DNA of 25,375 nucleotides. Source: Candidatus Sericytochromatia bacterium (lineage in GTDB: Bacteria; Cyanobacteriota; Sericytochromatia; UBA7694). Each line of letters starts with the position of its first letter. The stretch's first letter is position 1. Position numbers and translations under genes: made by a program. The stretch spans positions 1-25,375 of the forward strand of contig JBFWRL010000077.1 of assembly GCA_050248915.1 (NCBI GenBank), given 5' to 3'. Below, one piece after another: positions 3,542 through 4,938 of the stretch. The notes below the pieces were generated by a model. It was not told where the DNA came from. It saw only the letters and a program-made list of their open reading frames with translations, and searched no databases.

Positions 3542-4938
3542 TAATATTTGCCCCCACCCGTGGCTTTGGTGCCAGTGGCAATGGCAATACTGGCACTGGC
3601 GCCAATGCGGGTCGCACCGGCCTGCACCATTTTGATCGCGGTTTCGCGATCGCGAATACTGCCAGAGGCTTTGACTTCCATATCGGGCCGAATCGTGCGG
3701 CGCATCAGGGCCACATCTTGCTCGGTGGCCCCCCCTGTACCAAAGCCGGTGGAGGTTTTGACAAAATGGGCCCCCGCATTGGTGGAGAGCTGACAGGCCA
3801 AGACCTTTTCACTGTCGCTGAGCAAAGAGGTTTCGAAGATCACTTTGACGGTATGGCCGCCGGCGGCCTGGACCACCGCCCGAATGTCTTCTTCGACCAA
3901 TTTTTCTTTGCCACTTTTGAGCGCGCCGACATTGAGAACCATGTCGATCTCTTGGGCCCCATTGGCAATGGCATTGCGCGTTTCATCGGCTTTGGTCTTG
4001 CTGTCGGTGGCTCCCAGGGGAAAACCAATCACGGTGCAGACCTTGACCGGCGTGCCTTTGAGCAATTGGGCACTCAGCGGCACCCAGGTGGGATTAACGC
4101 AAACCGAAGCAAAGCTGTATTGTTTGGCCTCGGCACAGAGCTGACGAACCTGGGCTTCGGTGGCCTCGGGCTTGAGCAGGGTGTGGTCGATCAATGGCGC
4201 CAAATCGGCGGGCACAGGATGCATGCCCAAGGCAGAAGCCACCCGTTGAGCCCCCGATTGCACCAGCGAGCGCACCCGGTCGGTACAGGCCGAAGCGCAG
4301 TTGCCCTGCAATTCACAGCCTTGGCAATTGGCGGGCAAACTCGGGGCTTTGCCTGCGGCGGAAATGGCATCTGCCATGATCGAAACCGGCAAAGGAGGCA
4401 AGGGGAAAATATGTTCCAAATCGCTCAGGCGGCCCAGTTTGACGCCCAAAGTACTCAATTTTTTGCCCAATTCGGTTTCGTGTTCGAGCATAAAATCGTC
4501 GAGCAGCAACGCGGTTTTGCTGCGGCTGAGGGCTTCAACCACCAGGGCCGAAGCCAGACTTTCGCGGTTGAGGCGACCAATTTGTTGCAACAAGGTGCGG
4601 TTGGCGCCGACAATCGCCAGGCGGTCGACACTGTCGAGCAAAGCTTTGGCCTGACCCGGCCGGGCCTCGGGGCTCATAAAGCTGATCTCCAAACCCTGGG
4701 CCTCAAAGGGCGCGCTGCTCCACAGGCCCTGGGCCCATTTGGGGGCCACCAATTGCAAATGGGCCCGCGATTTCCACTGGCCGAGTTTGGCCAGCACCGG
4801 CTGTAAATCCAGATCCGAGCGGGAGAAGACAATCAAAACCCGGCTATAAGGCACCGCCGGGGATTGAGCCACCTGTCCACTGTAGAGTTCTGAGAGCAGT
4901 TCGCGGGTCACTTCTTCAGCAATTTTTTCAATATTCAT
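3541..4938 (-). CDS. deoC: Deoxyribose-phosphate aldolase (DeoC) fused to an N-terminal ~235-aa domain of unknown function; the ORF could start at 5070, but the ATG at 4938 is more likely
   Basis: The C-terminal ~225 aa matches DeoC ([43 protein letters not shown]). The N-terminal domain ([11 protein letters not shown]...[12 protein letters not shown]...[11 protein letters not shown]) contains a C-x2-C-x5-C-x3-C cluster ([14 protein letters not shown]). The ATG at 4938 sits 4 nt after the rpiB stop with a weak GGAAAA Shine-Dalgarno; starting at 5070 would overlap rpiB by 128 nt. Confidence 0.75.

Follow-up and report, generated by a model that had tools for sequence, protein, structure and literature searches.

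A long-form deoxyribose-5-phosphate aldolase, probably a microcompartment cargo enzyme, with a putative four-cysteine metal site in Candidatus Sericytochromatia

The window analysed here is a stretch of 25,375 nt on a contig from a metagenome-assembled genome (MAG) of Candidatus Sericytochromatia bacterium, and all coordinates given for it are window positions. Its reverse strand carries, at 3541..4938, a gene for a long-form deoxyribose-5-phosphate aldolase (DERA) of 465 aa, which appears to be of the type found with bacterial microcompartments. The open reading frame (ORF) and its translation (stop codon 3541-3543; coding part 3544-4938, start ATG at 4938) are supported by homologues that align over the full length. 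ATG 4938 was taken as the start because all close homologues share a conserved 'MNIE..' N-terminus and because a reading from TTG-5070 overlaps the neighbouring rpiB; this longer ORF was rejected, as it runs into rpiB and its start finds no support among the homologues. DeoC models matched residues ~246-453 only (PF01791, E=8.8e-16, 58.7 bits against a cutoff of 23.8), the TIGR00126 deoC equivalog model scored 291.7 bits against a cutoff of 117.3, and ~245 residues precede the DeoC barrel. The long N-terminal fusion to DeoC that an earlier, unaided reading of this DNA (the original prediction) had proposed is thus real, the ORF being 465 aa long with DeoC matches beginning at ~246. In cluster look-ups the long-form proteins carry the name 'deoxyribose-phosphate aldolase'.

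Residues 246-465 (3544..4203, reverse strand) form a class I DERA TIM barrel in which D332, the Schiff-base lysine K365 and K394 are intact. These residues, equivalent to D102, K167 and K201 of E. coli, were invariant in 102 sequences. Superposition of the barrel on DERA structures gave template-modelling (TM) scores of 0.94-0.96, and it is 63-65% identical to the Bacillus and Geobacillus DERAs. Judged by its residues, the barrel is catalytically intact.

The DERA gene is flanked on the same strand by rpiB and by a gene for a biotinyl-domain protein. The rpiB gene (4943..5401; PF02502, E=3.3e-52) encodes a 152-aa protein in which Asp66 replaces the catalytic Cys, of the type of the ribose-5-phosphate isomerase (RPI) found in sugar-phosphate-utilising (SPU) microcompartments; alignment with C. 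thermocellum RpiB (3HE8) set GIIVDG in the window against GIVICG. All SPU RPIs have Asp instead of the catalytic Cys; with this substitution the SPU6 RPI had almost no activity on ribose-5-phosphate, and in the SPU system the RPI and DERA assemble into a complex (PMC11585597). The biotinyl-domain protein (3047..3541; 164 aa; PF00364, E=3.7e-14) is translationally coupled to DERA and carries an MKM biotinylation motif, and its best PDB match was the C-terminal BT-end plus BCCP of methylcrotonyl-CoA carboxylase alpha (3u9s, E=1e-13). No carboxylase partner for it was found nearby. In each of the four loci examined in the Sericytochromatia clade (L001, L011, L012 and the window) this gene comes after the long-form DERA gene, which is not so in canonical SPU loci, and the operon rpiB-DERA-biotinyl protein-SpoU methylase is conserved in the window clade. 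The rpiB stop and the DERA ATG are 4 nt apart (TAAccctATG), and the DERA stop shares bases with the ATG of the biotinyl-protein gene (TAATG), so that the tight junctions originally described were confirmed; the dedicated sugar-phosphate module suggested alongside them also holds, rpiB and DeoC forming such a pair. A promoter and terminator scan returned counts no higher than chance level.

A search with the whole protein retrieved ~100 clusters of 430-530-aa proteins whose alignments to it cover its full length (100%), which answers the call made with the original prediction for the distribution of the fusion to be measured: the architecture recurs in ~100 bacterial clusters. For the analyses that follow, 102 long forms made up the alignment set, and 117 relatives made up the set in which cysteines were counted. 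Selection on the extension was assessed as the ratio of nonsynonymous to synonymous substitution rates (dN/dS) against three close genomes, the Candidatus Sericytochromatia/Blackallbacteria MAGs of L007, L009 and L010 (dS 0.2-0.6). The ratio was 0.07-0.12 for the first 24 residues, 0.02-0.04 for residues 31-180 and 0.015-0.02 for the DERA barrel, and segment 205-240 showed 0 nonsynonymous changes. The one fast-evolving part was the Pro-rich linker of residues 181-204, with a dN/dS of 0.63 against L001. Every part of the extension except this linker is therefore under strong purifying selection. Because of the low dN/dS and its conservation in more than 100 protein clusters, the extension is functional protein and not the product of a mis-called start.

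The extension opens with an amphipathic helix (4870..4938, reverse strand; residues 1-23), a putative encapsulation peptide, which the AlphaFold2 (AF2) model places at residues 3-23. The helical hydrophobic moment of residues 2-19 was 0.52 against a protein mean of 0.22 (sd 0.11; z~2.7; rank 4 of 448 windows). The helix core 'I-T-x-E-V' is conserved in all forms of the family, with E13 present in at least 90%. A comparison of the N-terminal profile with the N-terminus of EutC, the ethanolamine ammonia-lyase light chain, which is a classical encapsulation peptide, gave a weak and non-significant match (E~1.4). By analogy, the helix looks like the encapsulation peptides of microcompartment cargo (PMC4594438, PMC11585597); the N-terminal extensions of SPU DERAs have been interpreted in the same way (PMC11585597), and a 'Flav+DERA' fusion from Hodarchaeales reaches shells in an encapsulation-peptide-dependent manner (PMC12747264). 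Such a helix would target the DERA to microcompartment cargo and shell, or co-aggregate it with them.

Residues 31-180 (4399..4848, reverse strand) form a Rossmann-like alpha/beta domain, which we read as a divergent version of the PF02441 'Flavoprotein' fold (HFCD/UbiX/DpaB) whose flavin mononucleotide (FMN) motifs have decayed. The AF2 model built with the 102-sequence alignment gave a predicted local distance difference test score (pLDDT) >90 for these residues and a six-strand beta-alpha Rossmann-like topology; a model from the single sequence (pLDDT 45.7) was uninformative. PF02441 itself was matched by 10 of the 102 long forms (best E=8.5e-8). A family profile restricted to the N-terminal part matched EpiD 3qjg (2.9e-5), DpaB (5e-4), EpiD 1g63 (1e-3) and UbiX (6e-3) in the PDB, with PPC decarboxylase also among the matches. 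When the N-terminal helix was removed, hhalign linked the domain profile of the window clade to that of the distant long forms at 98.7% (E=2.2e-16, 141 columns). Because of the PF02441 matches, the PDB profile matches and this hhalign link, the domain is assigned, transitively, to a divergent HFCD/UbiX flavoprotein fold.

The original prediction had instead seen in this region a faint likeness to the sugar-phosphate (ISOCOT-like) domain of DeoR-type regulators, and had suggested a regulatory or redox-sensing domain; on such a reading the Cys4 linker would be a redox sensor that tunes the aldolase. What speaks for this is a visual impression, and a faint likeness is to be expected, since both folds are alpha/beta and Rossmann-like. 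However, the DeoR C-terminal family was matched by 0 of the 102 long forms at E<=0.01, and no such PDB match was found at E<=10; the profile matches lead to the PF02441 structures of EpiD, DpaB and UbiX, and the family accompanies shell genes, not regulators. The proposed likeness was thus not upheld, and a regulatory origin of this kind is highly improbable.

In the EpiD profile alignment, the window protein reads FSRSD, APKWA and VGANRT where EpiD has CGSVNS, ASTNG and PATSNT, at three positions which we take to be the FMN contacts of HFCD proteins. Intact FMN motifs (Gly-rich loop, S/T-x-x-A-x-x-F, PASANT) are lacking in the window domain, although a PASANT-like remnant is seen in it against LPATSNTINKIANGICDNL of EpiD, and in the family consensus 'ivipnlslnllsKlarLiadnl' against EpiD 'IIILPATSNTINKIANGICDNL'. 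While the domain has its Rossmann-like fold in common with the HFCD/PF02441 flavoproteins (EpiD, CoaC/Dfp, UbiX, DpaB), it differs from them in having no glycine-rich FMN loop, the long-form family has neither of what we take to be the catalytic His and the PxMNxxMW clamp, and the match is significant at the level of the family profile only. Distant long forms keep motifs nearer to the FMN type (LLTGGD, SxSAxxI, PNMSLNxxxKIAxLxxDSL) and, by these residues, look more flavin-competent than the window clade. With its motifs degenerate, cofactor binding by the window domain is doubtful, and in this clade the domain is more likely to be structural than flavin-binding. HFCD proteins (homo-oligomeric flavin-containing Cys decarboxylases, such as EpiD) form trimers or dodecamers, and for this reason we read the domain as probably an oligomerisation or scaffold module, which together with the dimeric DERA would make the cargo multivalent.

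The domain is followed by a Pro/Ala-rich linker (4327..4398, reverse strand; residues 181-204; pLDDT <50), variable in length and sequence in the alignments, and then by the motif C-x2-C-x5-C-x3-C (4285..4326, reverse strand), whose residues C205, C208, C214 and C218 make up a putative four-ligand metal or [4Fe-4S] site. A helix with near-invariant G229, A230 and R232 (4219..4284, reverse strand; residues 219-240) joins the motif to the barrel. The motif occupies residues 205-218, and its position at 4285-4326 is that originally given. Each of C205, C208 and C214 occurs in 92 of the 102 long forms; in the 80 residues ahead of the barrel, 104 of the 117 relatives have at least four Cys, two have three and 11 have none. 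In 45 sequences the fourth Cys lies 4 residues downstream, as in the window (type A), and in 44 it lies up to 11 residues upstream (C-x6-8-CxxCxxC; type B), both positions being occupied in only one sequence. A fourth ligand that switches sides of a three-Cys core is, on alignment grounds, the pattern of a four-coordinate metal centre. The metal site originally suggested has in this respect gained support, the motif being conserved and behaving in the alignments as a four-ligand site. Shorter relatives of ~280-305 aa (P0067, P0073, P0114, P0115) consist of the helix, the Cys motif, the GAxR helix and the barrel; since these forms keep the cysteines without the flavoprotein-like domain, the Cys element belongs with the DERA-proximal part and not with that domain.

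As to the metal, type B reads 'CxxCGxC...P', that is, a ferredoxin motif minus its last Cys, and several type A members end in 'CxxxCP'. One homologue gave Fer4 and Fer4_15 matches below threshold (E~0.009), and in Pfam scans of the Cys segments no Fer4, SPASM or zinc-finger model reached significance. The window spacing equals what we take to be the SPASM core spacing, CX2CX5CX3C, and this serves as a lead only. Set beside the ferredoxin and SPASM [4Fe-4S] motifs (CxxCxxCxxxCP; CX2CX5CX3C), relatives share CxxCGxC and CxxxCP, and the long forms have the first three Cys invariant and the fourth ligand variable; they differ in having no radical-SAM or ferredoxin fold context. A Cys4/Fe-S site is plausible: the cysteines would bind a metal, with a [4Fe-4S] cluster of ferredoxin- or SPASM-like spacing as the likeliest form, and would either stabilise the junction to the barrel or link the enzyme to a PduS/BMC-T electron relay of the compartment. 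A separate subgroup of ~505-515 aa (P0072, P0077, P0079, P0088, P0094, P0100, P0106, P0110, P0113) has two Cys-rich blocks of 8-10 Cys with a Pro-rich insert between them, which suggests two metal clusters; the L016 member of this subgroup sits after two BMC-P genes.

The same cysteines could form a structural zinc knuckle, binding Zn2+ and only stiffening a hairpin that packs the extension on the barrel, with no redox role. The all-or-none occurrence of the cysteines and the fourth ligand's change of side are compatible with tetrahedral metal sites of any kind, the motif directly precedes a GAxR helix that is kept even in relatives without the cysteines, and the region has been modelled as two short beta-strands and a helix of the DERA domain (PMC11585597). 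In contrast, half of the family has CxxCxxC with 'CGxC', and several members have 'CxxxCP', which are hallmarks of [4Fe-4S] ferredoxins and not of paired zinc knuckles; the sub-threshold Fer4 matches of one member and the two groups of Cys in the P0072 group, as in di-cluster proteins, point the same way. We consider a zinc knuckle unlikely, though still a reading to be reckoned with.

At the other extreme, the extension could be an active redox module, in which the PF02441-like domain would bind FMN and, with a [4Fe-4S] cluster, form an iron-sulfur flavoprotein unit that re-oxidises the NADH of an aldehyde dehydrogenase (AldDH) or feeds PduS/BMC-T, making the protein a bifunctional aldolase-oxidoreductase. 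PF02441 is an FMN-binding family to whose motifs the distant long forms stay near, the Cys spacing is ferredoxin-like, SPU loci as a rule have no alcohol dehydrogenase and depend on PduS (PMC11585597), and the domain of Flav+DERA is labelled a flavoprotein (PMC12747264). However, all three FMN-contact motifs are replaced in the window clade, where the glycine-rich loop is absent; the presumed HFCD catalytic residues are missing family-wide; no NAD(P)H-binding element was identified; and close relatives in which the domain is retained have repeatedly lost the cysteines. An oxidoreductase of this kind is quite unlikely.

The genomic setting of homologues connects the family to microcompartments. 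The locus of P0049 (L004/L005) runs BMC-P, AldDH, PduS, BMC-T, BMC-P, RpiB, BMC-P, BMC-H and then DERA, and that of P0064 (L006) runs RpiB, DERA, BMC-T(dp), BMC-H, BMC-P, AldDH, BMC-H, BMC-P. In L003 (P0087), L016 (P0113) and L017 (P0112) the DERA gene lies directly after one or two BMC-P genes. P0028 (L002) has no adjoining shell gene and a PduS-like gene 1.2 kb away, and P0034 (L013) has no relevant neighbour and no adjoining shell gene. L004/L005 and L006 are full SPU loci, and in terms of the published catalogue L003-L006, L016 and L017 correspond to its SPU loci and to its HO-type satellites of 'two BMC-P plus aldolase' (PMC8217296). There, DeoC-family enzymes with encapsulation-peptide-like extensions were placed away from HO loci (Sutter 2021; PMC8217296).

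The closest characterised relative is the Chloroflexi SPU6 DERA, which is the same class I DERA with the conserved Asp/Lys/Lys and shares with the window protein an N-terminal extension and an adjoining SPU-type RpiB (PMC11585597). An N-terminal extension is present on all SPU DERAs and has no counterpart in other DERAs (Dwyer et al. 2024; PMC11585597). The homologues of ~300 aa correspond to the window protein minus the Rossmann-like domain, and it is this extra PF02441-like domain of ~150 aa, between the helix and the Cys motif, that distinguishes the window protein from the SPU6 DERA, along with a DERA gene outside a shell locus and an RpiB without an N-terminal extension. In the SPU6 work the whole 70-aa extension was taken as an encapsulation peptide (PMC11585597). 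The Hodarchaeales Flav+DERA of a 2025 preprint (PMC12747264) has the same stated architecture, a flavoprotein-family domain before DERA and a predicted encapsulation peptide, and is likened to the window protein by description only. Its shell recruitment through the encapsulation peptide was shown experimentally. While the preprint calls such fusions uncommon in microcompartments, ~100 bacterial clusters were found here. The cysteines are mentioned in neither paper (PMC11585597, PMC12747264), and full-text literature searches returned no paper tying Fe-S clusters to a microcompartment DERA.

Taken together, the intact DERA, the four-part extension under selection, the SPU-type RpiB and the homologues beside shell genes lead us to read the window gene, with a probability of about 0.7, as a cargo form of DERA, the signature enzyme of SPU/HO-type microcompartments, equipped with a helix, a degenerate flavoprotein-like domain, a linker and a Cys4+GAxR helix element. 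Two features expected of a microcompartment-type DERA were found in the window itself, namely an N-terminal extension that starts with an amphipathic helix and a paired RpiB with Asp at the catalytic Cys position. A third, a DERA gene beside BMC-H/BMC-P and AldDH genes, was found for distant homologues of the same architecture, and not for the window and its close relatives.

Several observations weigh against the cargo-form reading. Searches that included tblastn with shell, AldDH and PduS proteins found no such gene in the window or within +-10 kb in L001, L007-L010 and L012. The window RpiB lacks the N-terminal encapsulation-peptide extension that the SPU6 RPI carries (PMC11585597). The assignment of the Rossmann-like domain is transitive because the window domain has no match of its own: residues 1-236 alone gave none against Pfam or PDB sequences at E<=10, none in a word-indexed protein search, and their own 50% cluster only in an exhaustive phmmer search over 1.84 billion representatives; its FMN motifs are, as mentioned above, degenerate. 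For the Cys motif, the Pfam scan of the window protein gave no Fer4 or SPASM match, and AF2 models the region with low confidence (pLDDT ~50). A neighbour-joining tree further placed at least four independent losses of all Cys in the window clade (P0011; P0017; P0018; P0022-27), so that in the closest relatives the cysteines are dispensable. The absence of the Cys cluster from orthologues, named at the outset as an outcome that would count against it, was thus seen in the 11 of 117 relatives without Cys, all but one of them in the window clade, and not in the other relatives.

Some of these observations would fit a cytosolic relic, in which Sericytochromatia would have no SPU compartment, the rpiB-DERA pair would act free in the cytosol and the extension would be kept for oligomerisation or for interaction with the biotinyl protein. 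Speaking for it are the lack of shell genes near the operon in the window and in L001 and L007-L012, the clade-specific and translationally coupled biotinyl protein, the RpiB without a targeting extension, and the loss of Cys, which happened repeatedly in the clade and just once in the remaining relatives listed. However, the encapsulation-peptide-like helix and the domain behind it are under strong purifying selection (dN/dS 0.02-0.12), the clade still has BMC-T(dp) genes of SPU-like character, and a scattered arrangement of shell genes is usual in HO-type systems and in the sister Cyanobacteria (PMC8217296). The DERA of L011 is 61% identical to that of the window, and 9 kb downstream of its gene lies one for a 211-aa BMC-T(dp) (20582-21217), which shares 56% identity with its counterpart in the canonical SPU locus L006. 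Close homologues of this L011 shell protein occur as solitary genes in MAGs named Sericytochromatia. Judged from these genes, shell parts exist in the lineage but are dispersed. We regard a relic as unlikely, and prefer the cargo-form reading, under which the enzyme may be encapsulated in this organism; in Sericytochromatia the rpiB-DERA pair would have left the shell genes for an operon with the biotinyl protein. A literature search found no paper linking Sericytochromatia with microcompartments.

Solitary CsoS1D/CcmP-like BMC-T(dp) shell genes were recorded on three Sericytochromatia-type contigs, those of L011 (20582-21217), L014 (10001-10636) and L015 (10001-10636), with 56% identity to the BMC-T(dp) of L006, and such lone genes may bear on the metabolosome/carboxysome history of the cyanobacterial lineage. 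A 210-aa ORF of the window (18024-18656) was tested as a BMC-T candidate and rejected.

The remaining genes noted in the window also lie on the reverse strand. Just upstream of rpiB, 5549-6958 encodes 469 aa with matches to the major-vault-protein shoulder (PF11978, 4.6e-9) and SPFH/Band-7 (6.5e-8), and a promoter-like site lies ahead of it at 7100-7071. The 424-aa product of 7133-8407 combines a weak CinA-like N-terminal part with a NadD-like (nicotinate-nucleotide adenylyltransferase) C-terminal part, an unusual pairing in which both matches fall under the curated cutoffs. A protein of 1347 aa (12584-16627) has a central GT4 glycosyltransferase domain with large unassigned flanks, and 18653-20125 encodes a DUF5939 plus adenylate/guanylate cyclase protein. 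Downstream of the DERA operon, 275-2191 encodes a flagellar hook/rod-family protein of 638 aa, and L001 and L012 show the same order of SpoU methylase, flagellar hook and ATP synthase.

The enzyme class is known and the window protein is a further member of it; the added value is modest and lies in a refined domain map and in a Cys4 site unreported in the searchable literature. Among bacterial microcompartments, those of the SPU type belong to the most widespread, yet no settled picture exists of the redox and cofactor logic inside them. In the sole biochemical study the DERA extension was removed, since the full-length protein was insoluble (PMC11585597). This extension can now be resolved into a putative targeting helix, a flavoprotein-fold domain that not all forms have, and a four-Cys site that is conserved. 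If the site is only a structural zinc knuckle, what remains is a family member of the ordinary kind whose domain map has been refined; if an Fe-S cluster is present, the native enzyme may need anaerobic handling, and a redox link would be implied for an enzyme held to be purely an aldolase. A wider and more tentative proposal, which we hold to be possible but doubtful, is that nearly all microcompartment-type DERAs, of ~300 and ~470 aa alike, carry an undescribed [4Fe-4S] site before the barrel, beside a flavoprotein-fold domain in the long forms, so that the SPU enzyme would be wired into, or redox-gated by, the PduS/BMC-T relay, and that Sericytochromatia would keep a dispersed SPU-like metabolosome that is losing the site. 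As Sericytochromatia are the non-photosynthetic sister class of Cyanobacteria, the window adds a data point on microcompartment parts near the carboxysome-bearing lineage.

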